This document shows positions 11,336-40,721 of a stretch of DNA of 64,000 bases, one piece after another. Each line of letters opens with the position of its first letter. Positions within the stretch are counted from its first letter, which is position 1. Origin of the DNA: a virus; the IMG/VR virus record IMGVR_UViG_2084038018_000001, positions 1 to 64,000 of that record; one strand, 5' to 3'. The position numbers were made by a program, and so were the translations under genes. The notes beneath the pieces were generated by a model. It was not told where the DNA came from and made no database searches. It saw nothing but the letters and a program-made list of their open reading frames with translations.

Positions 11336-11341
11336 AATTCT

Positions 11342-11363
11342 AAGGCCCTACGGGGCCTTTTTT
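11342..11363 (+). terminator. rho-independent terminator
   Basis: GGCCC-TACG-GGGCC hairpin followed by TTTTTT. Confidence 0.7.
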
Positions 11364-11376
11364 AATGGAGCTGCCT

Positions 11377-11691
11377 ATGAATCCCCTAGTTAAGAAGATC
11401 GGTGAGATCCCGATCAAAGTCGTTAACACTGTCGCCGGCGGCAATGCAATCGATGCAATGAAGCTACACCACAATCCGCTACTTAACCGAGCTCTCGGGA
11501 AGATTTCTCCTGACAGTAAAATCATGAAACGGATGGTGGAAAGATACGGCACACCTGCACAACGTCATGCCTTCGCGAAGGAACGCGTAAAGACACACAT
11601 GGCTCGCGCTGCGACCATTACCGGAGGCAGTGCCCTCCTGCTTCGTGAGCGTAGAAAACAACGACAAGGACCTTACTATGCTACTTACTAA
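11377..11691 (+). CDS. hypothetical protein (104 aa)
   Basis: ATG 11377 preferred over 11365 because GGAG lies 6 nt upstream. Same TTTTTTAATGGAG-N6/7-ATG layout as at 17393. Confidence 0.6.
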   Translation: MNPLVKKIGEIPIKVVNTVAGGNAIDAMKLHHNPLLNRALGKISPDSKIMKRMVERYGTPAQRHAFAKERVKTHMARAATITGGSALLLRERRKQRQGPYYATY

Positions 11692-12334
11692 GATCCAAGC
11701 GATCTTCCGGTCGATCATCGCAATGACCGATTCCTGGAAGCGATTCTTTATGAGTATCACACTCCTGCTACTGATCTCTGGGGGCGCCATCGTGTATCAA
11801 GCGACGAGCCTCTACCTGACCGGTAACTCCGAGTACTACTCATCCCTGGCTAAACGCCTGCAGGCGGACGACAAGATCACTCCGGTGATGGATGCGTTCC
11901 GTGATAAAATCGGATCAGACCGACTGCTCGTGGCAGAGTTGCATGACGGTAAGAAAAACACTACCGGCGTACGCTTTGCTTACATGTCAGGGACCTATGA
12001 GTCCGATGACCGCGGGTTAACCCGTGTGCTACTCGAGTTCCAGAATATCCCGACGTCAATCTTCGCCGGACTCTGGGGCCCGTTACTGGATGGTAAATGC
12101 GTCATGATCGACGATCAGAGTCCTCATGAAGTGGCTCGTGCACAGTTCCATGAGTACGGGGCTAACCGTACGATGATGTGTCCGATTCAGTCACCGGGTG
12201 ATTCCTCTATGATCGGCATCCTGTTCGCTACCTGGCGTGTTGACCCGACGGATTTCAATCTGGACAAGGTCAACGACGAAATGGAGAAAGCCTCCTACAT
12301 CATCTCTGGCCTGATCTACGAAGCGAAGGAGTAA
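11678..12334 (+). CDS. hypothetical membrane-anchored protein (218 aa)
   Basis: Start moved to ATG 11678 (AAGGA 7 nt upstream). N-terminal hydrophobic helix FFMSITLLLLISGGAIVY. Confidence 0.6.
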   Translation: MLLTKIQAIFRSIIAMTDSWKRFFMSITLLLLISGGAIVYQATSLYLTGNSEYYSSLAKRLQADDKITPVMDAFRDKIGSDRLLVAELHDGKKNTTGVRFAYMSGTYESDDRGLTRVLLEFQNIPTSIFAGLWGPLLDGKCVMIDDQSPHEVARAQFHEYGANRTMMCPIQSPGDSSMIGILFATWRVDPTDFNLDKVNDEMEKASYIISGLIYEAKE

Positions 12335-12336
12335 TA

Positions 12337-12771
12337 ATGGCAGATTTAACGACTCAAGACGTCCGCGATTTCCTGCGTGACAGCAAAGACAACAACCACC
12401 TGCTTGATGACATCGAGAACCCGGATTCGATCATCCGTCTGTCGATGGACCTGGCAATCAGTGACTTCAACGCTATTCCTCCGAAGACAACCTTCAACCT
12501 CACCGGCTTCGAGTACAAGGCCGTTCTGCTCTATGGAACGTGCTGGCAGCTCTTCCTCGGTTTGATGGCACTGGCGGCTCGTAACACGATGTCGTATAGT
12601 GATGGTGGACTGGACATTCCGATCGAAGAACGCTTCCCGTACTACGCTCAGATGGCCCAGATTTATCAGCAGATGTACCAGTCAGCAGCGAAACCCGTCA
12701 AGATTCAGCTCAACATGGAATCTGGTTGGGAAGACGTTCGTTCTGACTACGCAACTTTCCCAGCGTGGTGA
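12337..12771 (+). CDS. hypothetical virion-module protein (144 aa)
   Basis: Tightly packed ORF 2 nt after the previous stop. Function assigned by position only (between the fibre genes and the tail sheath). Confidence 0.6.
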   Translation: MADLTTQDVRDFLRDSKDNNHLLDDIENPDSIIRLSMDLAISDFNAIPPKTTFNLTGFEYKAVLLYGTCWQLFLGLMALAARNTMSYSDGGLDIPIEERFPYYAQMAQIYQQMYQSAAKPVKIQLNMESGWEDVRSDYATFPAW

Positions 12772-19643: not shown

Positions 19644-20606
19644 TTACGCTACCAGATCACCTAAGAGATCGAAAGCAGCTTTATCGTATGGATTACTGTT
19701 GAAGTGATCCACGACACGTTTGATCATCGGGGACCATTCGATGCACGGAGCAATCTGTGGGTGAAGGACGGCCAGAGCGTGAGCACTCACGAAGATCGCA
19801 CCTCCACGTACTCCCAGGTCATGAGAGCCGATGGATGCACCGTTCTGACGGATCAGTTGCTGGCCGTAGTCCGGGTTTGTCTGCAGGCCATAGATGCTAT
19901 GGTACAGATCATAGAGGTTGAACAGCACACCGTTAGAACCGATGGCTACTAACGTACGGATTGGGTAGCCGTTAAAGGTCAGGTCACCCAGAATGGTGCT
20001 GGTATTCAGTACAGCCACTTCGGAGCGAAGTACTTCTTCTTCCGCCGGATTCCCCTGAAAGGGTTCAACCGGACGGACCGTCACGGTATCGTTCTGAATC
20101 GCTGTGATCACGTGACCTTCTGGAACCGGGTCAGCGATGCTCTGCTGGGTACCGGAACCCAGGCGAACGTCCTGTGCAACCGCTGTCGCCAAAGTCGGAG
20201 CGAAGGCATCCAGCTGAGCACCCGGGACCGCTTCAACGATCGGGTCAACTGCCGGCACGCCATTATGATCCACACGCAGGGTCGGACCGTTCGCGTTCTG
20301 GATGGAAACCACCAGAGCGGAGATCACACCGGTGTGGTCGCCAGGGAATAGATTCTCGAAGAGATCGACGAGAGTCTGACCTTCGACGTACAGCGTGCCA
20401 TCGAGAATAGCGACGTCTTCAACGTCATCCTGTTGGATGTCATCTTCCAGGATATCGGAAGAGGAGTAGTCCAGAACTTCACGCAGTGCTTCAAGCACTT
20501 CGCCGTGAACGATCTCGTCGTCTTCAGCGATCTGACGGATCAGTTGGATAACGTTAGGTTTGGTGCCAACGGTATCGATGAAATTGTCGTTGATAAACAG
20601 GTTCAT
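19644..20606 (-). CDS. hypothetical protein (320 aa)
   Basis: Long ORF with an acidic N-terminal half. No motif recognised. Confidence 0.65.
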   Translation of the reverse strand: MNLFINDNFIDTVGTKPNVIQLIRQIAEDDEIVHGEVLEALREVLDYSSSDILEDDIQQDDVEDVAILDGTLYVEGQTLVDLFENLFPGDHTGVISALVVSIQNANGPTLRVDHNGVPAVDPIVEAVPGAQLDAFAPTLATAVAQDVRLGSGTQQSIADPVPEGHVITAIQNDTVTVRPVEPFQGNPAEEEVLRSEVAVLNTSTILGDLTFNGYPIRTLVAIGSNGVLFNLYDLYHSIYGLQTNPDYGQQLIRQNGASIGSHDLGVRGGAIFVSAHALAVLHPQIAPCIEWSPMIKRVVDHFNSNPYDKAAFDLLGDLVA

Positions 20607-21621: not shown

Positions 21622-22551
21622 ATGTCATTGACAACTGAAGAAATTATCGGGGGAATGTACCGAGCTCACCAAGCAGGGCAGCCATTCGCTGCTCTGGTGG
21701 CCAATCCCCACTTCGCGAACCTGTCACTGGAAGATAAGAAGCAAGTCCTGGCAGGATTTCGTAAGCGTATGGGCGGTGAGTCATCCTCAGCCGTCAATGC
21801 GATCGCTAATGTAGTGAAGGGTACCGCAGGCGGTGCCGCAGCAGGTATTCCTCTGGGTATGGCCGTGCCGCTGGCCCTGGAGATGTCTGAGACCGGTGCG
21901 ACTCGTCGTAGCGTCCTCGATGCTCTGAAGACTGCCGCTTCCAACAAGAATGTCAAACTGCTCGTCGGTACCGGGATGGCCGTAGGTGCAGTCGGTGGGC
22001 TGATCAACTCGGCTATGCAGCTGTATCAGGCTAAAAAGGACCGCAGCCAGATGCGTCAGGATCTCGAAGAAGCCTCTCAGGGCGGTGAAGCTCTCGCAGC
22101 GGCATCCTTCGGTGCTATCGGCGGTCATGGAGTGGCTCGTCAGGTTAACGTCGACCCGGTCGTTAAGACCTTTCGTGATATTGCCACCCCTTACGCAGTG
22201 ACATCTGCACGTTACGGACACTATGCATCCCTCGTCGATGCGAAGAGCCCGGACCACTACGCCGAGGTCATTACCCGTGCCCATGAGAAGGCCCTTCAAG
22301 GCCAGCCTCAGAGCCCGCAGGGATTGGCGAACATCGCTAAGGAATTGGCTAAAACCCGCGGCCACTACGATTCTCTGAAGGGAATTGTCGTAAACTCACC
22401 TCGAGAGCTGAACATCGACCCAGCAACCATCGGTGCTACCGTGGAAGAGATCGATCGCTTAGGCTCAACGAACGAAACGAACATTCAGAACCTGAATACA
22501 CTTGAACAATTTGCCCGTCAAGTGCGAGACATGAAAAGAGGAGTTCAATAA
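21622..22551 (+). CDS. hypothetical protein with Gly/Ala-rich hydrophobic segments (309 aa)
   Basis: GAGGAA SD. Segments GTAGGAAAGIPLGMAVPLAL and LLVGTGMAVGAVGGLI look membrane-active. Confidence 0.65.
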   Translation: MSLTTEEIIGGMYRAHQAGQPFAALVANPHFANLSLEDKKQVLAGFRKRMGGESSSAVNAIANVVKGTAGGAAAGIPLGMAVPLALEMSETGATRRSVLDALKTAASNKNVKLLVGTGMAVGAVGGLINSAMQLYQAKKDRSQMRQDLEEASQGGEALAAASFGAIGGHGVARQVNVDPVVKTFRDIATPYAVTSARYGHYASLVDAKSPDHYAEVITRAHEKALQGQPQSPQGLANIAKELAKTRGHYDSLKGIVVNSPRELNIDPATIGATVEEIDRLGSTNETNIQNLNTLEQFARQVRDMKRGVQ

Positions 22552-23420: not shown

Positions 23421-23893
23421 GCAAACTGAAAGCTACCCTGGACAAACGCTACGGGCCTGACTGGCCTGAACTGGACGTTGAGACGATCTCTCTGGACCTG
23501 GGCCACGCCCTGACGCCGGTGATGGTCTCTCAGCTGATGGTTCTGCGTACCCTGGGTAAGCACCCTGAGAAGTTCCTGAACGACGCCTCGTACTTCCTAC
23601 GGTTCGTCGAAGCAGCGAACGCTCACCCCGTAGACCCGTCGGTCGTCTACATGCCGAACGTACTGGAACTCGCCTGGGGCTTAATCGAGCTGCACCGCAT
23701 CCTCCCGGGTGCCGAGCTGTCGAACGCCATCCAGACTGTCTGCTCCTACATCCTGAAGGATGAGGGCTTCGGCTCAGCACCAGAACCCTTCACCTTCGTG
23801 ACCGGTCTGGACAACCCGGATGAATCCCCTGAGCAGAAAGAAGCTCGGGCGAAAGCCATCCGCCTCTACGCCCTGGCGATGGAGGAACTGTGA
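23414..23893 (+). CDS. hypothetical protein (159 aa)
   Basis: Overlaps the upstream gene by 7 nt. Confidence 0.6.
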   Translation: MLSKLKATLDKRYGPDWPELDVETISLDLGHALTPVMVSQLMVLRTLGKHPEKFLNDASYFLRFVEAANAHPVDPSVVYMPNVLELAWGLIELHRILPGAELSNAIQTVCSYILKDEGFGSAPEPFTFVTGLDNPDESPEQKEARAKAIRLYALAMEEL

Positions 23894-24147
23894 AACTGAG
23901 TCGGATTCGTGCAGAACGCGACAGGATGGAAAGGCTAGAGCGTAAGCACATTGCTCGAATCAACCAGGCGAACGGCCACGAAGCCAACGAGTATCACGAC
24001 CGTAAATACCATGAGTCCCAAGCGAAAGCCTACACCAAAGGCGATCCTAAGGGCCTCATGGCCTATGTGGGAAAAGCCCATGCTAAAAAATTGGCTGAGT
24101 ACCACCTACGCCTGGCGAAAGCCTTTGAGAAGGAGGAGTCACGATGA
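23890..24147 (+). CDS. His-rich small protein, paralogue A (85 aa)
   Basis: Aligns by eye with the next gene (IRAERDR.. / IREERKR.., ..YHESQA / YHKSLA, AEYHLRLAKAFEKEE / QAHHERLMQALEE). 4-nt overlaps at both ends. Confidence 0.6.
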   Translation: MKLSRIRAERDRMERLERKHIARINQANGHEANEYHDRKYHESQAKAYTKGDPKGLMAYVGKAHAKKLAEYHLRLAKAFEKEESR

Positions 24148-24422
24148 CCCTTACTGAAATCCGTGAAGAACGTAAACGCACACGCCTTAAGACGCCACGC
24201 TGGCATGAGCTGAACAAGATGGAAGGCGATCGCATCGCTGAGATCAATGTGAAGCACGGCGGGGAGAGCAATCCGCACCACGGTAAGCTCTACCACAAGT
24301 CTTTAGCCGAAGGTCACCGCATCAAGTCAGAGGGCAAGACCTTGACGGCGTACCTTAAGCGTGGGCACCACCGTAAGATGCAGGCGCATCATGAGCGTCT
24401 CATGCAAGCCTTGGAGGAATAA
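24144..24422 (+). CDS. His-rich small protein, paralogue B (92 aa)
   Basis: See paralogue A. Confidence 0.6.
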   Translation: MTLTEIREERKRTRLKTPRWHELNKMEGDRIAEINVKHGGESNPHHGKLYHKSLAEGHRIKSEGKTLTAYLKRGHHRKMQAHHERLMQALEE

Positions 24423-24655
24423 TGGCAACTATCGATGACGTAATGGCGAAGCTCGAGCTGATCCATGACGATGTAAAAAAAGGCCTAGTACTACAGGCCG
24501 AACTCCAAGCAGCCGCGACAGGCTCTTGGCAATGGGATAAGAAGTCCGGCATCCTCAAGATGTACAATGCCGAGGGAACCGAAATCGCCGTATTCAGCGT
24601 TTCCGATTCTCCCGACAAAGCTACTCGAGAACGCCGGGTAGACTTAGAGTCCTAA
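24422..24655 (+). CDS. hypothetical protein (77 aa)
   Basis: TAATG coupling with the upstream gene. The 3' end overlaps the convergent E1-like gene by 12 nt. Confidence 0.55.
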   Translation: MATIDDVMAKLELIHDDVKKGLVLQAELQAAATGSWQWDKKSGILKMYNAEGTEIAVFSVSDSPDKATRERRVDLES

Positions 24656-25684
24656 GATCTCTGCCATCTCAGGGGAGACTCGTTCGAGTTTCCCTTCTTT
24701 TAGCATCGCCTTAATCGATCTCTGAATCTCTGGCCAGAACGGATTAGAGGTGCAGGACTGGATCGTACGGAGTTCACGAATAGACACCGGATAGGCATCA
24801 GTCTTCTCATCCGCCGGCACCCGGTACTGCTTACCGTTCATCACTTCACGTACCCAGTCTGGGTTCAGACGCGTCTGGTCATTACCGTTATGGATATCGT
24901 AGAACCACGTCTCTACCTTCAGCGGCAGGCCCATGTAGATGTTCTGCATGATGGAGAACATAGACATCGCCATGATCGCGTTCACCGCAGCCGTCTGCTC
25001 GAGGTCCGCACAGGATGCATCCGGGTTACCTTGGTAGCCGGAAGCACGCAGATACTGACCAATCGGGCATGGCAGGAACGGTACCGGAATACCATCGGAA
25101 CCTTTCGGCACCAAACGGTCCAGATCCGACAGGTTCAGGTTCTCGAACTCTTTCTCGAGGATGATACGAGAGGAGAAGATACGAGCCTGACCGAAGGTGT
25201 TTTCGTTACCGGCATCCACGATGAAGTGCTCAACGCCAGACTGAATCGTTGAGTACAGGATCGACTGGATGATGTTGAAACGGGCCTTCATGTTATCCAC
25301 GCACAGGAAGAAGACCGCAGGACGGTCCGCCACCAGGCGCTTCATCGCATCCGGCACGTTAGACGTGAGCCAGCGAGTCATGGACTGAGAGTTGTTCGGA
25401 TAGAACTGGTTGATACTCACGGTAGGAATCTCGAAGGCGCCACCATAGCGCTCTGCGAGACACTCCGCTTTGTTACGACCCACGTCATCCGCAATGAAGT
25501 TCTGGCGGGCCAGGTTCTTCACTTCAACTTCGTCGCCATCGATAAGGGTGATCGTCGGGACCATATCGTTCCACTTACCACGGGACATTAACTGCGAGAG
25601 CATAGGAAGAAGGCGGGAACCAGTCCCGCCACAACCTACAATCACCGCGTTAGTAATCATCTGGCGATTGGTGTAGGTAAACAT
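24644..25684 (-). CDS. ThiF/MoeB/E1-like adenylyltransferase
   Basis: Rossmann motif VIVGCGGTGSRL, then DGDEVEVKNLARQNF (the D-x-D-x-V-x-x-x-N-L-x-RQ motif of E1/ThiF enzymes), CVDNMKAR and SCADLEQTAAVNAIMA. The start overlaps the JAB stop (TAATG). Confidence 0.85.
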   Translation of the reverse strand: MFTYTNRQMITNAVIVGCGGTGSRLLPMLSQLMSRGKWNDMVPTITLIDGDEVEVKNLARQNFIADDVGRNKAECLAERYGGAFEIPTVSINQFYPNNSQSMTRWLTSNVPDAMKRLVADRPAVFFLCVDNMKARFNIIQSILYSTIQSGVEHFIVDAGNENTFGQARIFSSRIILEKEFENLNLSDLDRLVPKGSDGIPVPFLPCPIGQYLRASGYQGNPDASCADLEQTAAVNAIMAMSMFSIMQNIYMGLPLKVETWFYDIHNGNDQTRLNPDWVREVMNGKQYRVPADEKTDAYPVSIRELRTIQSCTSNPFWPEIQRSIKAMLKEGKLERVSPEMAEILGL

Positions 25685-26913
25685 TAAATACCTCTGTCGA
25701 GATCAAAATCTTGGGACATACGGGCAATCGCCTTGCGAGCTTCCATAGCGGAACTCACCAGGAAAATACCCTCCTGGAAGAGGACTTCTGGGTCGGCGAC
25801 ATATTCGCTGAGACGCTTAGCAACTGCCGCGTTCAACTCATCGTCGTTTTCGCTGTAGACGGTAGCAACCAGCTCATCTGCCGTCTCATCCCAGCTCATC
25901 GGAGGTTCATCCTCCAGCTCGTGCATAATGCCGATACCGAAGGTACCTTCATCGACACCCAAGATGTCTACTGACGCTTGAGATCTCTGGGTCCGAGCGC
26001 TCGCCGTGAGGCCTTCCGAGTCCTCTCCGCGAAATCGGGCATCCCATGAGTCCTCGCGAGGGTTACGCTCGAGAGACTTGTCTGAGCCACCGGCGAAGCG
26101 TGACCCACCACCATACACTTTGCTGCCGCCAAGGGCGGGGCTGTAGCCCGGATAGGACGGTCGCTGATAAGTCAGAACCTCGACGTTCTCCATCCACGCC
26201 TTCACTACCGGGCTGTCCTCCTTTACCGGCGGTGCCTCGAAGATCTCTTCCAGTTTCATGGAGACTTTCGATTTGTAAGCATTGAAGCGCCAGATCAGCT
26301 TGTGATCCGGCAGGTTCAGCTTACCGGCAACGCCCGAGATGCCAACATAGGTCGCGTCATCACGTTCGTCGGTACCGGAGAAGAACGCGTCCATGGAGTT
26401 GTGGGAGTGGATGTCGAGAACAACCTCTTCGTCCTGAGCCACGTGATCCCAGTTATAGGTAACGGATGCTTTCGCTACTTTCTGCTTAGGAATCGCTACA
26501 CGGTACTCTTCCTTCGTCTTGTTCCAGACGATGTGAGCCATCGCTTCATAGTCGCCGTGGCCGAAGCCGGAGGACGTAGTCATTTTCATGACCTGGCGGA
26601 AGAACTCGACGATGTCGTTCAGCATTTCGATCGGGATCTTCTTATCGTTCACCAGCGGCTTCAGATAAGGTTTCAGCAGGGACTTGCCACCGTTGGTACG
26701 GATAGGCGTGTCGGAGATCTTCGTCATCGCCGAGCGGCCCAGGGAGAACTGATGGAACTGATACAGGACACCGTCATTACCCAGCACGTACACTTCCGGG
26801 TTATGCAGAACGTCGCCGCCGGCGAAGAATGCATCTTCAGTGACCAGAGCGCTCATGAAAGGGACCAGGTCCAGGACGCCATTATTCTTCTTCGTCATCT
26901 TCATCTTCCTCAT
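25684..26913 (-). CDS. JAB/MPN (JAMM) metallopeptidase-domain protein with long N- and C-terminal extensions
   Basis: Exact JAMM motif H-x-H-x7-S-x2-D (DIHSHNSMDAFFSGTDERDD) with an upstream Glu (GDYEAMAHIVW). 409 aa from the first ATG; alternative ATGs at 26904 and 26898. Overlaps the E2-like gene's 3' end. Confidence 0.85.
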   Translation of the reverse strand: MRKMKMTKKNNGVLDLVPFMSALVTEDAFFAGGDVLHNPEVYVLGNDGVLYQFHQFSLGRSAMTKISDTPIRTNGGKSLLKPYLKPLVNDKKIPIEMLNDIVEFFRQVMKMTTSSGFGHGDYEAMAHIVWNKTKEEYRVAIPKQKVAKASVTYNWDHVAQDEEVVLDIHSHNSMDAFFSGTDERDDATYVGISGVAGKLNLPDHKLIWRFNAYKSKVSMKLEEIFEAPPVKEDSPVVKAWMENVEVLTYQRPSYPGYSPALGGSKVYGGGSRFAGGSDKSLERNPREDSWDARFRGEDSEGLTASARTQRSQASVDILGVDEGTFGIGIMHELEDEPPMSWDETADELVATVYSENDDELNAAVAKRLSEYVADPEVLFQEGIFLVSSAMEARKAIARMSQDFDLDRGI

Positions 26914-27637
26914 CTGCCGCAGCAGCGTTTACAGTGGTAGGTTGTGGATATCCGCTCATCAGATGCCACGGGAATTTATCTAAGCGGGAGAGCTGGCGGA
27001 ACCAGTCACCTGCTCCATTGCCTTCCATACGCACGCCGCGGGCACCATTACCCCAGAGGTCGTTGTTGAACGGAGAGGCCACGAGGATCGTGTGGAACAG
27101 TTCGTTCAGACCGCGGAGATCATAGTTGTACAGCGAGCGATAGGAGTTTGCACCGGTACACATGCCGCCGTCGCCATACTGGTTCGGGAACGGGAGTGTC
27201 CAGAGGTGGTTGTTGAAGTTACGTGGGGTGAAATCCCAGTTCGCGATGTTCGGGACTTCATCGACCTTATAGTCGGTGCACAGCCACTTCACACGCTCAA
27301 CGGTCCAGCCGCCCTTACCGTTCGTTTTCAGCTGAACGTAGATCACGGTCGCCGGGAACGGGATAGTATAGCGGCCGTTGCCATAACGCACTTCACGCTT
27401 AGCTTCCTCGAAGTACATCAGGAGCTCGAGCTCGTGCTGGTTATAGCGAACGCTCAAGGCTTCATTCGGCAGGCGGAATGCCAGCTTCGGAGCCGTTTGC
27501 TGTTCCTGACCGGCGGCCACACGGGAGATCTCATTGAAGAAATCCTGCAGTGCCACGTTCTTAAAGGCACCCAGACCGTTAGGCACGCGGGCATGCGTAG
27601 GGAAGATAGTAACCTGCAGCCCTTGGTTGTTACTCAT
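26882..27637 (-). CDS. E2/UBC-like protein (putative) with an acidic tail
   Basis: LPFPNQYGDGGMCTG resembles the UBC HPN-x(n)-G-x-[IVM]-C active-site flap. ASPFNNDLW lies downstream. C-terminal AAAADEEDEDDEEE. ATGA overlap with the upstream gene. Sits between the Ubl and the JAB/E1 genes. Confidence 0.6.
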   Translation of the reverse strand: MSNNQGLQVTIFPTHARVPNGLGAFKNVALQDFFNEISRVAAGQEQQTAPKLAFRLPNEALSVRYNQHELELLMYFEEAKREVRYGNGRYTIPFPATVIYVQLKTNGKGGWTVERVKWLCTDYKVDEVPNIANWDFTPRNFNNHLWTLPFPNQYGDGGMCTGANSYRSLYNYDLRGLNELFHTILVASPFNNDLWGNGARGVRMEGNGAGDWFRQLSRLDKFPWHLMSGYPQPTTVNAAAADEEDEDDEEE

Positions 27638-27876
27638 ACGAAGGTTCTCCCAGTATTAACAGAGCGAATACTGCTGAAGTCGAAGATCATCTGGCGTCCG
27701 CCGTGGTTAGAACGCGGAGCCTGACGGGTGACGGTGAAGTTGAGGTTCTGAAGGATCATCATGGCCTCCGCTGGCGTCCCCGCCGCCTTCAACTTCTCAT
27801 CGAGGGCTCTTAGGACGACGGGGCCGCTTGCGATGATCTCGTTGAGGTCCGATAGTCTTTGTAGTAAATCTTGCAT
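27634..27876 (-). CDS. hypothetical small protein of the Ubl operon (80 aa)
   Basis: The stop overlaps the E2-like start (ATGA). Protein-like helical N-terminus MQDLLQRLSDLNEIIASGPVVLRALDEKLKAAG. The start lies 67 nt inside the upstream ORF. Confidence 0.5.
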   Translation of the reverse strand: MQDLLQRLSDLNEIIASGPVVLRALDEKLKAAGTPAEAMMILQNLNFTVTRQAPRSNHGGRQMIFDFSSIRSVNTGRTFV

Positions 27877-28787
27877 GTCGGGAAGGCTCCCATGGTGTTA
27901 ATGACTTTAGTGATCCCCGGGAGGTTATCCACGAAGATCGGGCCGTAGTCCATCTGCGATGCTTGACGCGGACGTTGGCCTGGCTGAGAGGTTGACTCCA
28001 CGACAGTCAGGTCACGGAACATGCCGTAGTCGAACGCCAGGGACACGAGCAGGACGGTGTAGCGACCGGTTTGTACTCGACGGACGACGGAACGACCTTG
28101 CTGCTGCCACTCCGGACGGGCCGGTGACGCGAGCTCATCCATATGGTTGAACTGCTTCGGACAGTAGACCAGACGCATACCATAACGCTGAGCCAGGAAG
28201 TCGACATAACGGATATAGCGACGGAGGCTAGGAGTATCCTCGAGGTATGTACTCCATGCCGCCCACGCCTGGTTCTCACCGAGCGTTTGGAGCGTATGGT
28301 ACGTTCCCGTCTGCTCTTCCGTATAGATCAAATCCGGGTCACGACCGTGATCGACGGTATTGCTGCCGAGAGGTAGAAACCGAATGGGACTTTTGATATC
28401 CTTGCCCACGAACGACTTCATGAACTGCAGCATGTGAACTACGCCGAGGTTCAAGTTACGCAGGCCAGACTCAACGGAACGGTTACCGGATTGAACGAAC
28501 GGTGCGATCCCAGCCGCGAACTGAGCACGTACCGTGTAGGTCATCAGGTTACGCATGTTGCCGAGATACTGCTGAAGCGTACGCAGGTTACCTTCCGTCT
28601 CGGCACCGCCAAGGATGTCGACCACGGAGGCGAGGTCCTGAGTGACGCTGACGCTGCCATCCGAGTCAACGCGGGTCTTGAGACCTTCTGTGTGGATGAA
28701 GCCTTTGAGAGCTACCGCATCGGTTAATCGCTGAGGGCTAAGCTCGTGGTAGACAGATGAGTTGATCTGCCAAAGGGGATAAGACAT
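27810..28787 (-). CDS. hypothetical protein of the Ubl operon (325 aa)
   Basis: Strong SD (AAGGGAGG 5 nt upstream). First gene after the Ubl terminator. No motif recognised. Confidence 0.7.
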   Translation of the reverse strand: MSYPLWQINSSVYHELSPQRLTDAVALKGFIHTEGLKTRVDSDGSVSVTQDLASVVDILGGAETEGNLRTLQQYLGNMRNLMTYTVRAQFAAGIAPFVQSGNRSVESGLRNLNLGVVHMLQFMKSFVGKDIKSPIRFLPLGSNTVDHGRDPDLIYTEEQTGTYHTLQTLGENQAWAAWSTYLEDTPSLRRYIRYVDFLAQRYGMRLVYCPKQFNHMDELASPARPEWQQQGRSVVRRVQTGRYTVLLVSLAFDYGMFRDLTVVESTSQPGQRPRQASQMDYGPIFVDNLPGITKVINTMGAFPTCKIYYKDYRTSTRSSQAAPSS

Positions 28788-28803
28788 GACGCCTCCCTTA
28801 ACT

Positions 28804-28832
28804 AAAAAAAGAAAAGGCTCCCATTGGGAGCC
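28804..28832 (-). terminator. rho-independent terminator/attenuator after the Ubl gene
   Basis: On the minus strand, GGCTCCC-AAT-GGGAGCC followed by TTTTCTTTTTTT. Confidence 0.75.
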
Positions 28833-28853
28833 TCCTTCCGACTAAGCTAAAGC

Positions 28854-29054
28854 TTAGCCTTTAGTACCGGTACGACGTTCGAAGTAGATGTGACGTACGC
28901 CGTCAATCACTTCTTCGCGGGAATTCATGGATGCAGTCTGGAAAGCAGAGTCGAACTGACGTGCTGCTTCTTCTTTGGTCATGATGATACCGTCCAGAGT
29001 ACGTGCGTCGCGACCAGGAATGTGAACAACGGTAGAACGAATAGAAGTTGACAT
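28854..29054 (-). CDS. ubiquitin-like small protein with C-terminal glycine (PRTRC protein C-like, putative)
   Basis: 66 aa: MSTSIRSTVVHIPGRDARTLDGIIMTKEEAARQFDSAFQTASMNSREEVIDGVRHIYFERRTGTKG. Ends in Gly immediately before the stop. First gene of an operon that also encodes E2-like, JAB and E1-like proteins. Confidence 0.6.
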   Translation of the reverse strand: MSTSIRSTVVHIPGRDARTLDGIIMTKEEAARQFDSAFQTASMNSREEVIDGVRHIYFERRTGTKG

Positions 29055-29100
29055 GTGTCTTTCCTTTTAAAAAGTAAGTTAGTTTGTGTGGCATAGCGTC

Positions 29101-29123
29101 TCTATACCAGGGTTATTATACCA
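29101..29123 (-). promoter_or_regulatory. tandem extended -10 boxes (CCCTGGTATAAT, CCCTGGTATAGA) for the Ubl operon
   Basis: The minus strand reads CCCTGGTATAATAACCCTGGTATAGAGAC. TGGTATAAT matches the extended -10 consensus TGnTATAAT. Confidence 0.5.
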
Positions 29124-29130
29124 GGGTATT

Positions 29131-29138
29131 TTAAAATA
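29131..29138 (+). promoter_or_regulatory. candidate rightward promoter box TTAAAATA
   Basis: 24 nt upstream of the terminase ATG. Embedded in the inverted repeat GGTATT-N11-AATACC. Confidence 0.3.
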
Positions 29139-29162
29139 TTGAATACCTAACAGGAGAAATTC

Positions 29163-30761
29163 ATGAAAAAAGCTACTTCGAGTCAATTGGCGGCGGCTCT
29201 CCTGGAGTTGAAGGGTAAACCGATCAACTTCACGGACTATAAGCCCTTTACCGCCATCTATGACGTCGACCCGGACCTGATGGTCTTCAAAGCCGGTCGT
29301 CAGATCGGGAAGTCGGTATCTCTCGGCGGACGCTTAGTGTCTAAGTCGATCGGCCGTCCGTACTTCAACTCCCTGTACATCGCACCTTTCCAGATCCAGG
29401 CGAAGCGTTTCTCGAACGCCTACCTCGATGCCTTCCTGGAGAGCCCGCTCGTGAAGAAATACTTCCGTCGTTCAAACGACCCGAGCAACGTCTTCGAGAA
29501 GACGCTGGCGAACAAATCTAAGATCTATCTGTCGTATGCCCAGACGGAGGCTGACGCCGACCGTATCCGTGGTCTGATGGCCGATCTGTTAACCGTAGAC
29601 GAAGTCCAGGACGTCTCCTATGACGCACTGCCGCCGATCTTCGAAATCCTGAACGCCTCCGAGTATGCTCTGAAGGTCCTGGCTGGTACGTCCAAGTCCA
29701 CGGCGAATACCCTCGAGCAACTCTGGCTGCGTACCAACCGTCTGGAGTGGATCAACAAGTGCCCGCACTGTGGCCACTGGGTCATTCCAGATACCTACGA
29801 GAAGTGTGTCCGTATCTGCCAGCCTCATGGCCCGTCCTGCGATAAGTGCTTGAAGCCAATCGATCCAGGTAAAGGCCAGTGGGTGGCGACGAACCCTCAC
29901 ATCCGTGACAAGGTCGGCTTCCACCTCCCGCAGATCATCATTGGGGATAACTGTAAGCCTAAGAAATGGGCTCGTCTCATCGATAAGGTGAAGCAGGCTC
30001 AAGAAGGCGGCCTCTACACCCCAGCAACGCTCGCAAACGAAGTCTTCGGGCTTGCAACAGACCTCTCCGGTCGTTCACTCTCTATGGCGGAAGCCATGAA
30101 GTGCTGTAACGAACAGTGGAAAGGCTGGGCATCCCCGACTGATTTCTCGAACCCGGTCTGGGCGGCGATCTCTAAGACGATCGTCCGTACGGTTCTCGGC
30201 GTCGACTGGTCTGTAACCGGTGGCGTGAAGTCCTATACCGTGGCGACCGTCCTCGGGTACGACGGCTACGGCCGCTGCTACATGCTCGAATCGAAGAAGA
30301 TGCAAGGGATTCACATCCTGGACCAGGTGAAGGACGTCTGCCTCATGGCCCGCAAGTGGAGCTGTGCCGTCGTCGGCTCTGACCGCGGCGTCGGGGTTCT
30401 GCAGGGCCAGTTGATGCAACAAGAGCTGGGACATGATAAAGTGATCATGGTAAACTACGTGGCAGCTAAACAACGTTTACGCTGGGACCAGCAGGGCCAG
30501 TTCCTGGCAGCTGACCGCTCTCAGGCGATCGATAACGTGATGATGAAGTGGCGTATCGGTCCGGATCGCTTCATGTGCCCATCATGGGGTACGACGGAAG
30601 GCTTCTGGACGGATGCCCTAAACGTCTTCGAAGAAGAGACCGGCGTAGGCCGTCGTGTATACCGTCACCACCCGGATGAGCCGGATGATTGGATGCACTC
30701 AGTCGTCTTCGGACACGTGGCATACCAGTACCTTGAAGGCGACTTCAAGTATACCGAATAA
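29163..30761 (+). CDS. terL: terminase large subunit (GpA-like)
   Basis: Walker A-like FKAGRQIGKS, Walker B LLTVDEVQD, and a zinc-finger-like CPHCGHW...CDKCLKPI as in lambda GpA-type terminases. 532 aa. Confidence 0.85.
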   Translation: MKKATSSQLAAALLELKGKPINFTDYKPFTAIYDVDPDLMVFKAGRQIGKSVSLGGRLVSKSIGRPYFNSLYIAPFQIQAKRFSNAYLDAFLESPLVKKYFRRSNDPSNVFEKTLANKSKIYLSYAQTEADADRIRGLMADLLTVDEVQDVSYDALPPIFEILNASEYALKVLAGTSKSTANTLEQLWLRTNRLEWINKCPHCGHWVIPDTYEKCVRICQPHGPSCDKCLKPIDPGKGQWVATNPHIRDKVGFHLPQIIIGDNCKPKKWARLIDKVKQAQEGGLYTPATLANEVFGLATDLSGRSLSMAEAMKCCNEQWKGWASPTDFSNPVWAAISKTIVRTVLGVDWSVTGGVKSYTVATVLGYDGYGRCYMLESKKMQGIHILDQVKDVCLMARKWSCAVVGSDRGVGVLQGQLMQQELGHDKVIMVNYVAAKQRLRWDQQGQFLAADRSQAIDNVMMKWRIGPDRFMCPSWGTTEGFWTDALNVFEEETGVGRRVYRHHPDEPDDWMHSVVFGHVAYQYLEGDFKYTE

Positions 30762-36570: not shown

Positions 36571-37243
36571 TTTAGGGGTACGTTCCTATGCCCAATCGAT
36601 GACCCTTGAGAACTTCTTCAAGCAGAAGGCGATGCCTGACCTTCTGCCATCCGTGAAGGCCTTCACAACGAAGGTCCTTCAGCCAACGGTGAAGGTTGTC
36701 GAAGACGATTGCCACACGATGCTCGGACGAAATGTGTCAGCAGACGACTACTCGATGGTCGGCCTGCTGGCCCTCGATACTGACGAGATCATCGATGAGG
36801 CCTACGTGATTGATAAATACGAGCACAACATCTTTACGATCCGTGTTCGGGACACCTGTGCATGCACCTCCAAGGGCGGTGTGTGCCGTAAATGCCTGCA
36901 CGGTACGTATATCCGTCTGGGCATCACTGAGCCGCTTCCCGAGGTCGGTGCCGTGGTGAAGATGCCGGTTGAGTCATCAGCCTACCTGAACCACCTCGCC
37001 GGGACGTACTCAGGTGCTATCATGGGTGCTCTGCCACTGCCGTCACCGCCGCTGCCACTGCGTCCAGGTCTCTTCGAAGAGCTCGTCTCTCACGAGGAAA
37101 TGGACATGATGATCCGCCAGATGGGTTCTTTAAAGATTCCACCGGATGAGGTAGACTATCTGAATAACATCAAGAGCCGCTTCGAGCGTGCTCTCATGAT
37201 TCTGGCCTACTACGGAGCGTACGGTAATGCGTTTAGAAAATAA
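36563..37243 (+). CDS. hypothetical baseplate-module protein with a Cys cluster (226 aa)
   Basis: Start moved to ATG 36563 (AAGGAG 6 nt upstream). CACTSKGGVCRKCLHG motif. Confidence 0.6.
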   Translation: MSNLGVRSYAQSMTLENFFKQKAMPDLLPSVKAFTTKVLQPTVKVVEDDCHTMLGRNVSADDYSMVGLLALDTDEIIDEAYVIDKYEHNIFTIRVRDTCACTSKGGVCRKCLHGTYIRLGITEPLPEVGAVVKMPVESSAYLNHLAGTYSGAIMGALPLPSPPLPLRPGLFEELVSHEEMDMMIRQMGSLKIPPDEVDYLNNIKSRFERALMILAYYGAYGNAFRK

Positions 37244-40200
37244 TCTCGGCGGGGACAACCTTTACGGTAACTTCCGGCTGTACATCGAGGGGATCGAGGT
37301 CCCCTTCTCAGCTGCGAGCGTGACGAACACCTATCGTGGATTACCTACGGCCCAGATCACTCTGGCGCCGTGGCGTGGTTTCTCGGAAATCACCAAGGGA
37401 TACTTCCCGAAGGTTCACCTCTTCTATCGTGACTTCAACCAAGGCCTGGCACCGTACGACATCAAGCGAATGGCAGCAGGTATCGCGTCAACGAACGTGA
37501 CCACGGCGGCCGCGGCGATGGGGGAATCTGCAGAAACCTACAACAAACTCGAGCGTCATGCCTACAAGCTGATCTTCGGAGGCGTTATCACGTCGGTCAC
37601 GGACTCCAAGTCACTGGCCGGCGACGGCGGTTCTGCATCGATCTCCCTGAACTGTGTGCACCCGTACTATATCCTGAATGAAATCCTGTTCAAGTACATC
37701 GGGACGAACCCGCAGGAGACGAACGCCCGAGATTCTGCCTTCGGTATCATGGTGGACGGCGGCAACGTCGGCTCTATGTACACGATCGAGCAGGCTCTCG
37801 CAGGCGTACGAGCTCCAGGCGCTGGCCAAAAGACCTTAGAAGACGGCGGCGGCGACACGTCTGTCCTTTCTGATACGATGTCGGATAACTACTGGCGTCT
37901 TCAGGGTATCCCGGGCGTGATCGTGGCGCTATGGAACTCCTTCAAGCGTTCAGCGTACTCCACGGGGAACCAGAAGGACAAATCCATCATGACGAAGATG
38001 TACATTCCTCTGATGGAAAGCGGCCTGAAGTATTTCACCAAGATGACGGGGCATCCGGTCATCGAAGGGTCTATCCAACGTGACTCGAAGACGGCACCGA
38101 CCCAGGCGCCAACGACGACGCAGACTGCCGCTAAAGGATCTCCGGAAGCCGTTCTCGGCCTGTCTACGATGTCAGATCGCGGTAAGAAAGAGCTCATCGA
38201 GTTCGCGGAAGGCCGTCACTACAAGCTGTACGATGACGCCACGGGCAAGACGATCGCCCACGCAGTCGATGCCGTCGGTACACCGTCCATCGGTGTTGGC
38301 CATGCGGTGGCGAAGACGGATACCCAGTTCGATGGCAAGACGCTCTCTGACGCTCAGGTGAACAACCTGTTGTCCGATGACGTGTCGAATGCAGAGCGTG
38401 CAGTCTCTCGCCTCGGACTTAAGCTGTCACAGGGACAGTTCGATGCTCTCGTCGACCTCACCTTCAACGTCGGGCCCGGCGGTCCGGGTAAAGACGGTGC
38501 CCTGCAGCAATCCAACGGCCAGCCATCGACGCTCGTCCGCTTGATCACCGAGGGGAATACTCAGGGTGCAGCGAACGAGTTCATGTCATGGGTGTATGCC
38601 GGCGGCCAGGTCTCTCAAGGTCTGGTGACACGTCGTAAACGTGATCAGGCGTTCTTCCTGGATTCCCCACTGCCGTCAGCCCAGAGCTTAGCAGCGAACG
38701 CCTATTCCTCACGAGGTTCTAACGAGGAAATGGCATCGAACAACGGGAAGCTCATCCCGGGGAACATGAACGGTCTGCTTCCGGCGGCCATGGCGACTCA
38801 GCTCCTGAGCATCCTCTCGAACTCCATGACGTCGGGCGGTACCGGAGAGGTCATGTCATACGGACAGCTGATCGATGCCTTCCTGGAAGTCGTTGAGTAT
38901 GACCACGTTATTCTGAACTCTCCGGCGAAGATCGGTATCGCTGGCATCCCGGAGATCGTCGATCACGTCTATAAGCCACGGATGTTTGCGTACTACTCAC
39001 CGATCTGTAACGTGCTGCTCCCGAACATGTACGAAGCCTATTCGGTGAACATCGGGACTGATCAGGTGCCGTCCCGTGTGATCTACAACGGGATGCAGTT
39101 CACGGCGGACTCTCAGGCGAACTACGGGACGTCGGTGAACCTGCACAACTACGTCTCCCCGCACTCCGTTCGTAAGGCTCTCGCCGACGGCGGCAACCTG
39201 AAGGGTACCCTCGCATCCCTCGTAGCGACGCCAGGCAAATATGAGTGGGGCTCAGGTGTGCGTACAGCGGACGGTACTCTGCCTTACTGGTATGCCGTGC
39301 TGTCAAACCAGACGCCATCGGCTAACGTCGGTGACCTCGCGTCCGGAACGACGCTGGACAACCTGAAGGCGGCCTGGAACAAGCTGTATCCGGAAGACCC
39401 AACGCTGAACCCGTGGGATACCGATTTGTCCGGCATCGAGGCCTACCAGCGTCTGTTCTTCACCGGTGTCGATGTAGAGTTCTCGAACATCTACTCACAG
39501 GCCCGCCAGGGAAGCGTAGAAGGCGTTTTCAACCCGTTTATCGTCCCAGGCTACCCAATGGACATCATCGACCCAAGTCCTCTCAGAGAGTCATACCATG
39601 GCTTCTGTACGTCGGTCACGCACTCGTTTGATGCCGCGGGATACTCAGCGACGTCGATTGGCATGTCTTCGGCCTACACCTTCTCGGAGATCGCAACGTG
39701 CTATATCCCGGGAACCTACCCATGGCTCTTGGCCCAGCTGAAGATGGATGAGAACCTGTCGATGTATGGTAATACGCCGGCCTTCCAGCGTGCCTGCCAG
39801 TACTATAACGACGTGCTCGGCGTCGGTGCCGCTGACCCAACGATCCTAGAAGCGTACTCTACCGGGAAACCTTTCCCGCTGAAACGTAACATGGGCGTTT
39901 GGGAAATCGGTGAGTCAGCAACGCTTCAGGGCTCTGACCACCCGACACTCTACACGACGACGCTCGGTAACCTGAACCTCGTGGCCCGTAACATCGCGTC
40001 GCTTCTGGACATCGAGAAGGAACACGCCATGGTGGCAGAGACCTTCGTCGATATCGACATGTGGAACCAGGGTTCTCCGACCGTTGAAGAAGTCCGTAAG
40101 GGACCGTGGGTGAATGACCAATCCGGAACGCAGGATTCGTCTACACTTCGCGGCCGTGACATGGAGGCCTCAGCCTTCCTGGATTATGATTCAGAAGCCG

Positions 40201-40721
40201 AGACGCCAGATCCAGTGATCGTTGCCGGTGATCGTCCGACGAATGTGCCACCGACTGTGGGTCAATCCGGTCTACCGCTTCAGCAAGCGACGGTTCAGGG
40301 TCAACTTCCGGATGTTCTGCCTAAACTCGGTAAGCGTTGTTCAGTAGGCGCCCTGGATGCAGAATCTCAGGCGAAATTGGCTGAGTGTCACCCAGATCTG
40401 GTGAAAGTCGTGATGAAAGTCATCGAGACCCGTCCTGTCGTCATCACCTCCGGTTACCGTACCTCTGCTAAACAGGCGGCTCTGGAGAACGGTGGTGGTC
40501 AGTATGCTCAGGGTGCGGGCAAAGGCTCTCGTCACCTCAAGTATCCGTCATGGGCAATCGACATGGTGCCGTGTAACAACCTGAACGCATCATCGCGTGC
40601 GGTCATGGAGAACTTCGCTACGTACGTTCTGCAGTGTGCTAACTCGATGGGCGTGACGCTTCGTTGGGGCGGTAACTTCTCAACGTATGACCCGGTGCAT
40701 TTCGACTTAGGTCTCGGTTAA
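37227..40721 (+). CDS. baseplate hub/tail-associated lysin with a GH24 lysozyme domain and a C-terminal M15 (VanY/hedgehog-type) peptidase domain
   Basis: 1164 aa. Lysozyme region around 38160-38665 (EFAEGRHYKLYDD...TPSIGVGHAV...FDALVDLTFNVGPGG). M15 region around 40339-40718 (SGYRTSAKQ...GSRHLKYPSWAIDMVP...DPVHFDL). Confidence 0.7.
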   Translation: MRLENNLGGDNLYGNFRLYIEGIEVPFSAASVTNTYRGLPTAQITLAPWRGFSEITKGYFPKVHLFYRDFNQGLAPYDIKRMAAGIASTNVTTAAAAMGESAETYNKLERHAYKLIFGGVITSVTDSKSLAGDGGSASISLNCVHPYYILNEILFKYIGTNPQETNARDSAFGIMVDGGNVGSMYTIEQALAGVRAPGAGQKTLEDGGGDTSVLSDTMSDNYWRLQGIPGVIVALWNSFKRSAYSTGNQKDKSIMTKMYIPLMESGLKYFTKMTGHPVIEGSIQRDSKTAPTQAPTTTQTAAKGSPEAVLGLSTMSDRGKKELIEFAEGRHYKLYDDATGKTIAHAVDAVGTPSIGVGHAVAKTDTQFDGKTLSDAQVNNLLSDDVSNAERAVSRLGLKLSQGQFDALVDLTFNVGPGGPGKDGALQQSNGQPSTLVRLITEGNTQGAANEFMSWVYAGGQVSQGLVTRRKRDQAFFLDSPLPSAQSLAANAYSSRGSNEEMASNNGKLIPGNMNGLLPAAMATQLLSILSNSMTSGGTGEVMSYGQLIDAFLEVVEYDHVILNSPAKIGIAGIPEIVDHVYKPRMFAYYSPICNVLLPNMYEAYSVNIGTDQVPSRVIYNGMQFTADSQANYGTSVNLHNYVSPHSVRKALADGGNLKGTLASLVATPGKYEWGSGVRTADGTLPYWYAVLSNQTPSANVGDLASGTTLDNLKAAWNKLYPEDPTLNPWDTDLSGIEAYQRLFFTGVDVEFSNIYSQARQGSVEGVFNPFIVPGYPMDIIDPSPLRESYHGFCTSVTHSFDAAGYSATSIGMSSAYTFSEIATCYIPGTYPWLLAQLKMDENLSMYGNTPAFQRACQYYNDVLGVGAADPTILEAYSTGKPFPLKRNMGVWEIGESATLQGSDHPTLYTTTLGNLNLVARNIASLLDIEKEHAMVAETFVDIDMWNQGSPTVEEVRKGPWVNDQSGTQDSSTLRGRDMEASAFLDYDSEAETPDPVIVAGDRPTNVPPTVGQSGLPLQQATVQGQLPDVLPKLGKRCSVGALDAESQAKLAECHPDLVKVVMKVIETRPVVITSGYRTSAKQAALENGGGQYAQGAGKGSRHLKYPSWAIDMVPCNNLNASSRAVMENFATYVLQCANSMGVTLRWGGNFSTYDPVHFDLGLG

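Follow-up and report, generated by a model that had tools for sequence, protein, structure and literature searches.

Here, we describe a six-gene cassette in a 64-kb stretch of viral DNA (positions 1 to 64,000 of IMG/VR virus record IMGVR_UViG_2084038018_000001, hereafter the window) which probably encodes a functional, phage-borne cascade for the conjugation and deconjugation of a ubiquitin-like modifier (Ubl). This statement concerns biochemistry and not purpose. The cassette consists of six minus-strand open reading frames (ORFs) spanning 24644-29054, and it is a distant, phage-specific variant of an operon type previously predicted by computation, namely class 6d of Iyer, Burroughs and Aravind (2006), which corresponds to the PRTRC set of NCBIfam/TIGRFAMs (TIGR03734-03742) (PMC1779556). 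This kind of operon is thus already known; its setting in lytic phages, the poly-Ubl genes of its relatives and the regulatory features described below are new. A sequence-only reading of this DNA had taken the six leftward genes to be one unit, and the ORF list contains every ORF, length, motif and overlap then claimed:

28854..29054, minus strand: Ubl gene, 66 amino acids (aa), ending ...RRTGTKG and stop
27810..28787, minus strand: gene for a 325-aa protein, in the position of PRTRC protein F
27634..27876, minus strand: gene for an 80-aa protein, sharing 67 nt with the end of the 325-aa gene and 4 nt with the E2 start
26882..27637, minus strand: E2-like gene, resembling ubiquitin-conjugating (UBC) enzymes; 251 aa, motif LPFPNQYGDGGMCTG, F-P-N152-x7-C160, acidic C-terminal tail
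25684..26913, minus strand: JAMM/JAB metallopeptidase gene, 409 aa, HSHNSMDAFFSGTD matching H-x-H-x7-S-x2-D and read H-S-H
24644..25684, minus strand: gene for an E1-like adenylating enzyme of the ThiF/MoeB family, 346 aa, with GCGGTG, DGDEVEVKNLARQ and DNMKAR

The 4-nt overlap reads ATGA; further along, the E2-like and JAB genes share 32 nt, and the JAB and E1-like genes share 1 nt (TAATG).

The window comes from a relative of Salmonella phage Arash (OQ632216), a 180.8-kb myovirus that infects S. Typhimurium. The large terminase (TerL) proteins of the two phages are 96% identical, and the cassette region has 76% DNA identity to Arash across 60% of its length. The Arash copy comprises gp246c-gp251c and lies at the right-hand end of the record; all six of its genes are labelled either 'hypothetical' or 'structural protein'. 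The same six genes in the same order are found in Arash, in four IMG/VR contigs (L002-L005) and in several other metagenome contigs; the single-protein searches used to find related loci returned only close relatives. Each of the four GenBank phages with a TerL >50% identical has the E2-like gene, and the lineage as a whole comprises phages of roughly 170-190 kb, including Arash, Vibrio phages D69, D148 and D181, and many metagenome contigs. Even distant E2-like representatives (26-33% identity), where their contexts were sampled, all lie within the same six-gene order. Such recurrence is far more than chance would produce. In the window and in L002-L005 the cassette is divergent from TerL; in L021 it is head-to-head with a homologous TerL (7e-254), and in L020, a 92-kb metagenomic phage contig, a homologous TerL (1e-161) is divergent and lies about 1.6 kb off, with a homing-endonuclease gene in between. 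D69 and L026 have other genes between the cassette and the terminase region. Judged by these comparisons, the cassette is fixed and syntenic throughout a lineage of large phages and is not a gene set of a variable island. Relatives of the cassette are also carried by plasmids, integrative and conjugative elements (ICEs) and temperate phages.

Two of the six proteins are identified directly by profile searches, which had been proposed as a check for the whole set. The E1-like protein exceeds the cut-off of Pfam ThiF (PF00899; 53.4 bits, E = 2.6e-14, cut-off 28.1), and the best of its 14 NCBIfam matches is PRTRC_ThiF (62.2 bits, E = 4.3e-17), a score under the TIGR03736 cut-off of 144.75. From the phages to the plasmid PRTRC ThiF proteins, residues G17, G19, G22, D51, N57, Q61, K72, R79, D130, R135, D157, N160 and Q166 are conserved, the nucleotide-binding glycines and the adenylation residues among them, and the pair S224-C225 is invariant; no rhodanese domain is found in the protein by Pfam or NCBIfam scans. 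The peptidase likewise exceeds the cut-off of Pfam Prok-JAB (PF14464; 30.9 bits, E = 2.8e-7, cut-off 25), and its sole NCBIfam match is PRTRC_A (68.1 bits, E = 7.2e-19), under the TIGR03735 cut-off of 101.8. The JAMM core, E123, H169-S-H171, S179 and D182, is conserved in an alignment with phage and plasmid versions. Thus the ThiF/MoeB-type and JAMM identities read from motifs are upheld by Pfam, with PRTRC models as the best NCBIfam matches. Ahead of the JAMM core the peptidase has an N-terminal domain, and behind it a C-terminal extension of about 190 aa, which is common to the large-phage versions, including gp215 of Bacillus phage WH1, and is lacking in plasmid PRTRC_A.

Group I introns typically sit in conserved, functionally important sites. 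In L020 such an intron (Rfam RF00028, 11252-11504, 55.6 bits against a gathering score of 50), which carries a LAGLIDADG homing endonuclease gene, splits the JAB gene (9710-12339) inside the HxH motif, D-I-H/S-H-N. The JAB gene of L025 is interrupted as well, in this case by two genes on the opposite strand, of which one has an HTH_7 domain. A further irregularity concerns the E1-like gene of D69 (L015 3529-4500, VPHD69_0301), whose annotated start is an internal Met, so that the Rossmann motif is left out. The missing N-terminal part (…LVGCGGTGSRV…DGDEVEFKNLSRQ…) is present in frame upstream, with no ATG, GTG or TTG start; either an unusual start codon or coupling to the JAB gene may serve here.

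The E2-like protein is identified through its family. A word-indexed search yields only 26 close clusters, and an exhaustive profile search yields 320 cluster representatives at E <= 1e-3. Among 118 sampled family members, 95 match Pfam Prok-E2_D (PF14460) at E <= 0.01; the best of these matches has E = 1.8e-10, and some exceed the model's gathering score of 25 bits. With the window protein as query, iterated search (jackhmmer) arrives at PRTRC_B (1e-12 to 1e-21) and at a C. difficile protein annotated 'prokaryotic E2 D', and hhalign places the family on four annotated PRTRC_B proteins at E = 2.6e-4 over 172 columns, with the Cys aligned. Only P95, N152, C160, G162 and N191 are invariant in the broad family alignment. 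N152 stands eight residues before C160, which is the spacing of the UBC H-P-N...C signature. When aligned by hhalign with three eukaryotic UBC sequences, FPN..C falls on HPN..C (E = 0.0045), which counts as a lead only. An AlphaFold2 (AF2) model of the protein (predicted local distance difference test, pLDDT, 83) has the order helix, beta-meander, long Cys loop and three helices. Both the predicted order of elements and the placement of FPN..C agree with a UBC-like fold. The E2-like identity originally proposed from the HPN-like motif is therefore sustained by family-level profile links and by an invariant Cys and Asn.

A possible outlier of the family occurs in Acinetobacter phage vB_AbaM_ME3 (KU935715), a 235-kb jumbo phage, in which a ThiF-like gene lies near 136.6 kb (tblastn 1e-8) and the predicted structure of a 294-aa protein matches the window E2-like model (BFVD A0A172Q0C7, E = 1.2e-3). 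This phage may carry a further, more distant cassette.

The case for the Ubl is also made in steps. Its tail is strikingly constant: across 24 cluster representatives, R60, R61, T62, G63, K65 and G66 are invariant and T64 is found in >=90%. The window gene ends directly at the stop codon after this Gly, and its product therefore needs no C-terminal processing. An AF2 model shows a beta-beta-alpha-beta-beta arrangement (pLDDT 84). The best Foldseek matches of the model, all non-significant (E = 0.07-0.6), are protein L, protein G B1, the ELMO Ras-binding domain (RBD), SUMO and Raf-RBD, which we take to be beta-grasp-class folds in the SCOP classification. An hhalign comparison with PRTRC_C gives E = 0.015, the alignment ending exactly on KG. 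Iterated search from the Ubl reaches the repeats of WH1 gp211 at 3.8e-7, and these repeats in turn match the PRTRC_C profile at 5.5e-19. A joint Ubl/PRTRC_C alignment is colinear, with F58, G63, K65 and G66 invariant from the phages through plasmid PRTRC_C. The link to PRTRC_C is thus a transitive one and, together with the model and the poly-Ubl relatives, supports the Ubl identity put forward earlier. The sequence-only reading had given PRTRC_C as a protein of about 66-70 aa with a G-x-K-G-like tail. Four annotated PRTRC_C proteins are 72-77 aa long and end ...AAGAKG followed by 2-8 residues.

Genes encoding several Ubl units in a row are found in relatives of the window. The 172-kb IMG/VR contig L005 has two head-to-tail copies (4386-4775; ...RRTGTKG/AEISSTVV...RRTGTKG and stop), which are identical at 158 of 180 DNA positions. 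Two copies followed by a single Cys cap occur in L021 (2897-3283). Three copies, each ending TGTKG, are encoded by D69 (L015 7295-8086, VPHD69_0307) and by L026 (7223-8008), and WH1 gp211 (L016 1772-2671) has five, each ending QAGTKG, plus a short tail. L020 encodes one Ubl with a 134-aa C-terminal extension, and Burkholderia phage BgVeeders33 a PRTRC_C-like Ubl with a 60-aa extension. Such precursors require a cut immediately after KG, which would therefore be a job for the neighbouring JAB. These genes give strong, independent support for the Ubl assignment. They recall the polyubiquitin genes of eukaryotes, which likewise consist of head-to-tail repeats ending in Gly and typically carry a one-residue cap, as in L021 with its one extra C-terminal Cys. 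The likeness has its limits, in that the phage Ubl has no sequence similarity to ubiquitin, its tail is G-T-K-G in place of R-G-G, and the window gene is a single copy.

The 325-aa and 80-aa proteins are both without any match in Pfam, NCBIfam, PHROGs or PADLOC, and the relatives of both are close ones. Only 29 close relatives of the 325-aa protein are found. It is the fastest-evolving member of the cassette when compared with Arash: identity is 57% for the 325-aa protein, about 64% for E2 and JAB, 80% for E1, 82% for the Ubl and 90-96% for flanking genes. It has many invariant charged residues, is near PRTRC_F in size and holds the same position. A C-terminal motif links it weakly to its positional equivalents in D69 and L021 (hhalign 0.005 and 0.009). 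We also searched by hhalign, hidden Markov models (HMMs) and jackhmmer for links to PRTRC_F itself and to the F-position proteins of other loci; nothing connects the protein with PRTRC_F, and the weak C-terminal matches to D69 and L021 are all that these searches gave. The 80-aa protein has full-length orthologues in Arash and L002-L005, and in L020, L021, L025, L026 and L028 a small gene (85-122 aa) likewise overlaps the end of the preceding gene ahead of the E2 gene. Because it is an obligatory partner in every locus and also the fastest-evolving one, the 325-aa protein, probably together with the 80-aa protein, is our best candidate for a specificity (E3-like) module, though as a guess. The pattern of divergence across the cassette and its flanks would be expected if a specificity module tracked a changing partner.

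How close is the cassette to PRTRC? As described, class 6d comprises a Ubl with a C-terminal Gly, a rapidly diverging, largely alpha-helical protein that has conserved charged residues and may be an enzyme, a JAB, an E1 and an E2-like protein; in the last of these the classical His is missing, and an absolutely conserved His lies downstream of the Cys (PMC1779556). In four annotated plasmid PRTRC loci, the gene order is ParB-E-C-F-B-A-ThiF; in the window it is C-F-(80 aa)-B-A-ThiF, so that C-F-B-A-ThiF is common to both. Also shared are the G-x-K-G end of a small Ubl with its invariant G66, the E2 Asn-x7-Cys signature, the invariant S-C of E1, and a standalone JAB beside a standalone, rhodanese-free E1, and PRTRC models are the best NCBIfam matches of the window JAB and E1. 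On the other side, the cassette scores under all curated PRTRC cut-offs, and HMMs of ParB, E and F made from the four annotated plasmid loci find no counterpart among the ORFs of the whole window (best E = 0.16-0.97). PRTRC_C continues for 2-8 aa after KG, whereas the window Ubl ends exactly at Gly, with poly-Ubl genes in its relatives. The window JAB has the C-terminal extension, the E1 is about 90 aa longer and the 80-aa protein is additional. The downstream His of 6d is replaced in the window E2-like family by invariant Asn191 (SPFN), with FPN instead of HPN. Finally, PRTRC resides on a plasmid or ICE, and the window cassette in a phage of roughly 180 kb. The plasmid loci adjoin ParB-like, methylase, SNF2-helicase, exonuclease and DUF932 genes, neighbours that are typical of establishment and anti-defence regions.

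There are also 6d-like cassettes that bear no PRTRC annotation, on C. difficile plasmid pHSJD-312 (L010) and Gloeocapsa plasmid pGLO7428.02 (L009). Their order is a small protein, a protein of about 260-270 aa, an E2-like protein, a JAB or unknown, and ThiF. In a small-database search the phage proteins have closer matches in the Gloeocapsa ThiF and JAB (E1 2e-17, JAB 4e-11) than in canonical PRTRC proteins.

Other systems resemble the cassette in part. Bil (BilABCD), a bacterial defence in which an ISG15-like Ubl is attached to a phage tail protein (PMC11601596), likewise has a separate Ubl, E1, E2 and JAB-family peptidase, and thioester chemistry would be expected here as well from the conserved Cys residues. 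Unlike Bil, the window cassette belongs to a phage and includes two further partner proteins, and it matches no PADLOC Bil model. The Rossmann part of E1 (the first ~100 residues) matches PADLOC E1-E2 (Cap2) models at 1e-7 to 1e-8, and the other five cassette proteins match no PADLOC model. The type II cyclic-oligonucleotide-based antiphage signalling system (CBASS) to which Cap2 and Cap3 belong also has a JAB peptidase as partner. In Cap2, however, E1 and E2 are fused and the protein conjugated is the cGAS-like enzyme itself, with no free Ubl, and the window cassette has no nucleotidyltransferase. Bub (class 6e/DUF6527) is a bacterial E1/E2/Ubl system with a multi-beta-grasp Ubl and processing by a peptidase (PMC11601596). 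Its E1 and E2 lack the catalytic Cys and form oxyesters, its peptidase is fused to E1 and it has an extra serine protease, whereas in the window cassette both Cys residues are invariant, the JAB is separate and Pfam gives no DUF6527 match. We therefore rejected Bub as the identity of the cassette. The tail assembly proteins I (Ubl) and K (JAB plus NlpC/P60) of phages lambda and T1 (PMC1779556) similarly pair a beta-grasp protein ending in Gly with an adjoining JAB, but they come without E1 and E2, and the window cassette has no NlpC/P60 domain.

The DNA around the Ubl gene suggests how the cassette is expressed. The relevant features are:

29115..29143, minus strand: putative promoter before the Ubl gene, TTCAAT, 17 nt, TATAAT with TG upstream (extended -10)
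28842-28857, minus strand: small hairpin across the Ubl stop codon, CTAAGC-TTTA-GCTTAG
28812-28836, minus strand: G+C-rich terminator-like hairpin between the Ubl and 325-aa genes, 11 pairs of which 6 are G-C, then T-run CTTTTTTT
28802..28857, minus strand: two-hairpin region after the Ubl gene, read as a partial terminator or attenuator
29163-30761, plus strand: TerL gene, divergent from the Ubl gene and 108 nt off

The extended -10 is TGGTATAAT at 29115-29123, with a weaker second copy, CCCTGGTATAGA, just downstream. TGNTATAAT occurs once in the window, and TGGTATAAT is the sole extended -10 consensus there. The arrangement TTCAAY-N17-TATAAT with the TG extension (TTCAAY...TTGGTATAAT) is conserved at the corresponding position in L002-L005 and also in L021, a distant contig. 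We also considered the repeated CCCTGGTATA as a general phage promoter motif and rejected it, as the window shows no enrichment of this motif; the extended -10 reading is the only one that stands. The hairpin and T-run that had been called an attenuator are present as claimed (28836..28812, minus strand). A hairpin with a T-run occupies the same position in Arash, L021 and D69, with stems that differ and compensating changes that keep the pairing. Compensating stem changes are seen in L005 too, where the aligned stretch ends before any T-run, and a hairpin and T-run can also be read after the Ubl gene in L026 and L028. An Rfam scan of the cassette region finds no RNA family.

These observations, taken with what is known of the protein families and with the conserved residues, point to the following sequence of events. 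The conserved sigma-70-type extended -10 promoter would drive the operon, and partial termination after the first gene would make the Ubl far more abundant than its five overlapping, translation-coupled partners. The E1-like enzyme would adenylate Gly66 of the Ubl with ATP and then take the Ubl onto Cys225 as a thioester. From there the Ubl would pass to Cys160 of the E2-like protein, in which Asn152 may act as does the Asn of the UBC HPN motif. Isopeptide joining to target lysines would follow, with targets picked by the 325-aa protein, probably with the 80-aa protein. The JAMM peptidase, cutting after ...G-T-K-G, would both free the Ubl from the poly-Ubl and fusion precursors of the relatives and strip conjugates.

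Several points weigh against this interpretation. Neither the Ubl (Pfam, NCBIfam at E <= 0.1, PHROGs, PADLOC, and a PRTRC_C HMM from the four annotated loci) nor the E2-like protein (Pfam, NCBIfam, PHROGs, PADLOC, with the Prok-E2_D and PRTRC_B models missed at E <= 0.1) has a direct match, so that of the profile matches anticipated by the sequence-only reading, those of these two proteins are reached only transitively; a PRTRC_B HMM from the four loci likewise fails to match the E2-like protein. The structural check it proposed did not come out in its favour. Foldseek finds no significant ubiquitin or ThiS match in the PDB for the 66-aa model and, for the 251-aa model, a best PDB match at E = 0.33 with no E2 among the matches; against BFVD the latter recovers uncharacterised phage proteins and no UBC. 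Sequence profiles of the two families find no relatives in the PDB. The E2 assignment is accordingly one supported by sequence profiles and the active-site signature, not by a structural match. The E3-like role is a guess because no homologues of the 325-aa and 80-aa proteins can be detected beyond the lineage, and fast divergence could reflect weak constraint instead of conflict. Our literature searches found no functional study of any 6d/PRTRC system. Mass spectrometry (MS) of Arash particle preparations did detect cassette proteins, within a 'structural proteome' of 116 proteins that includes ribonucleotide reductases (PMC10585845). Because of that breadth, the data show expression and not virion incorporation. 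We rejected the 'structural protein' labels of Arash as evidence of incorporation for the same reason, and also because the gene numbering appears shifted; the numbering in the Arash proteome may be offset from that of GenBank.

What such a cascade would be used for is a separate matter. The 'lytic-looking' character and 'virion region' cited by the sequence-only reading are context, not function. We lean, with somewhat less than even confidence, toward action on host proteins during the establishment of infection, as takeover or as counter-defence. This purpose is favored because the promoter is of the sigma-70 type, because a fast-evolving specificity candidate stands beside a conserved Ubl, and because plasmid PRTRC lies among establishment-type genes. 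The main alternative purpose, which we regard as rather unlikely, retains the same biochemistry and has the Ubl attached to, or chaperoning, the phage's own virion or assembly proteins. Consistent with it, the cassette lies between genes for MS-detected particle proteins and TerL, and TerL adjoins or is near it in L021 and L020. However, this adjacency may be mere inheritance, since the TerL proteins of these contigs are homologous, and D69 and L026 have intervening genes. Cassette proteins are contained in the Arash particle preparations, but so are many non-structural enzymes (PMC10585845). Similarly, the penta-Ubl of WH1 is annotated 'virion structural protein', but a literature search for the basis of this gp211 annotation found no paper. 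The lambda proteins I and K do set a precedent for a Ubl and a JAB in morphogenesis (PMC1779556). Set against all of this, the cassette promoter is sigma-70-like and unique, not common to the structural genes of the window, and the conservation of nearby structural genes contrasts with the fast evolution of the putative specificity protein.

It is also conceivable, if improbable, that the phage carries the cassette for defence or exclusion in the manner of Bil, placing the Ubl on proteins of competing phages or mobile elements in the same cell. The characterised prokaryotic systems with E1, E2, Ubl and deubiquitinase (Bil, type II CBASS and probably Bub) are all anti-phage (PMC11601596, PMC10557695); plasmids, ICEs and temperate phages carry relatives of the cassette; and the fast evolution of the putative specificity protein would fit this role as well. 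But a fixed, syntenic and lineage-wide cassette is unlike a variable island set, PADLOC defence models match just the Rossmann part of E1, and Arash has no recognised lysogeny genes (PMC10585845). Least probable, and very unlikely in absolute terms, is a sulfur-carrier or small-molecule pathway, in which a thiocarboxylate (ThiS/MoaD-like) or a peptide modification (MccB-like) would serve cofactor, tRNA or DNA modification. The E1 does also match ThiF, MoeB and MccB and has an invariant Cys, as in MoeB and ThiF, and large phages often modify nucleic acids. The sequence-only reading had named cofactor-biosynthesis partners as evidence that would count against conjugation, and we looked for them; the cassette contains no rhodanese domain, no ThiG/ThiH/MoaE-type partner and no sulfurtransferase. 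Moreover, every such cassette has an E2-like protein bearing the UBC Asn-x7-Cys signature, and a JAB along with polyubiquitin-like genes fits conjugation and recycling better. It is because these components are present and the sulfur-pathway partners absent that we consider sulfur transfer unlikely.

If the cassette does serve for Ubl tagging in infection, it would be the first bacteriophage-encoded ubiquitination-like pathway. The sequence-only reading knew of no characterised example in a phage, and our literature searches (PRTRC; phage Ubl/E1/E2/JAB; jumbo-phage Ubl; Prok-E2) found none either, with no functional study and no description in lytic phages. A 2026 paper describes PRTRC function as unstudied and the cassette as essentially unrecorded in phages, and the Arash paper makes no mention of ubiquitin or ThiF (PMC10585845). 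We put it at about even that Ubl tagging with a system of their own is carried out in infection by a whole lineage of large, apparently virulent phages (Arash-like phages, Vibrio D69/D148/D181 and many uncultured relatives) and, as a separate case, by some Bacillus jumbo phages, whether on host or rival proteins or on their own virion proteins. Prokaryotic Ubl conjugation has so far been shown only in host immunity (CBASS, Bil, Bub), and a core cascade in a lytic phage would reverse this picture, making the virus the tagger. It would also supply a function for the PRTRC/6d cassette of plasmids and ICEs, which has gone unexplained for about twenty years. The poly-Ubl genes show that polyubiquitin gene architecture occurs outside eukaryotes too. 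Because Arash grows on S. Typhimurium ATCC 14028, the cassette would offer an experimentally tractable entry into the 6d/PRTRC family, which plasmids, ICEs and temperate phages widely carry. A tail of G-T-K-G would leave a specific proteomic signature, namely a single Gly on the modified Lys after trypsin.

For work with Arash, it may be worth noting that gp251c is annotated in the wrong frame (L001 10220-10438, OQ632216 about 180500-180718), which gives an unrelated product of 72 aa. The true Arash Ubl gene is at L001 10233-10433 on the minus strand and encodes 66 aa ending ...SRRTGTKG and stop. Searches of the deposited Arash proteome would therefore miss the Ubl.

Finally, we also note several features elsewhere in the window. 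At 23890-24147 and 24144-24422 there are two adjacent small paralogous genes, which encode Lys/His-rich, probably helical proteins of 85 and 92 aa. Both match one and the same Arash gene (89% and 34% identity); a single copy is present in L002, and at the threshold used none is matched in L005. The pair looks like a local tandem duplication in the window's phage. Near the cassette, the genes at 19644-20606 (minus strand) and 21622-22551 (plus strand) are only 45% and 67% identical to their Arash counterparts and 30% and 48% identical to those of L005, with flanks at about 90%. Neither has a PHROG match, and they may encode host-range or surface proteins. A single ORF of 3198 aa, very large for a phage of such size, fills 1739-11335 (plus strand). 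The gene at 37227-40721 (plus strand) encodes an 1164-aa protein with two separate endolysin-type domains, PHROG 7 (residues 302-497) and PHROG 465 (1043-1161), and is probably the counterpart of the virion-associated cell wall hydrolase of Arash.

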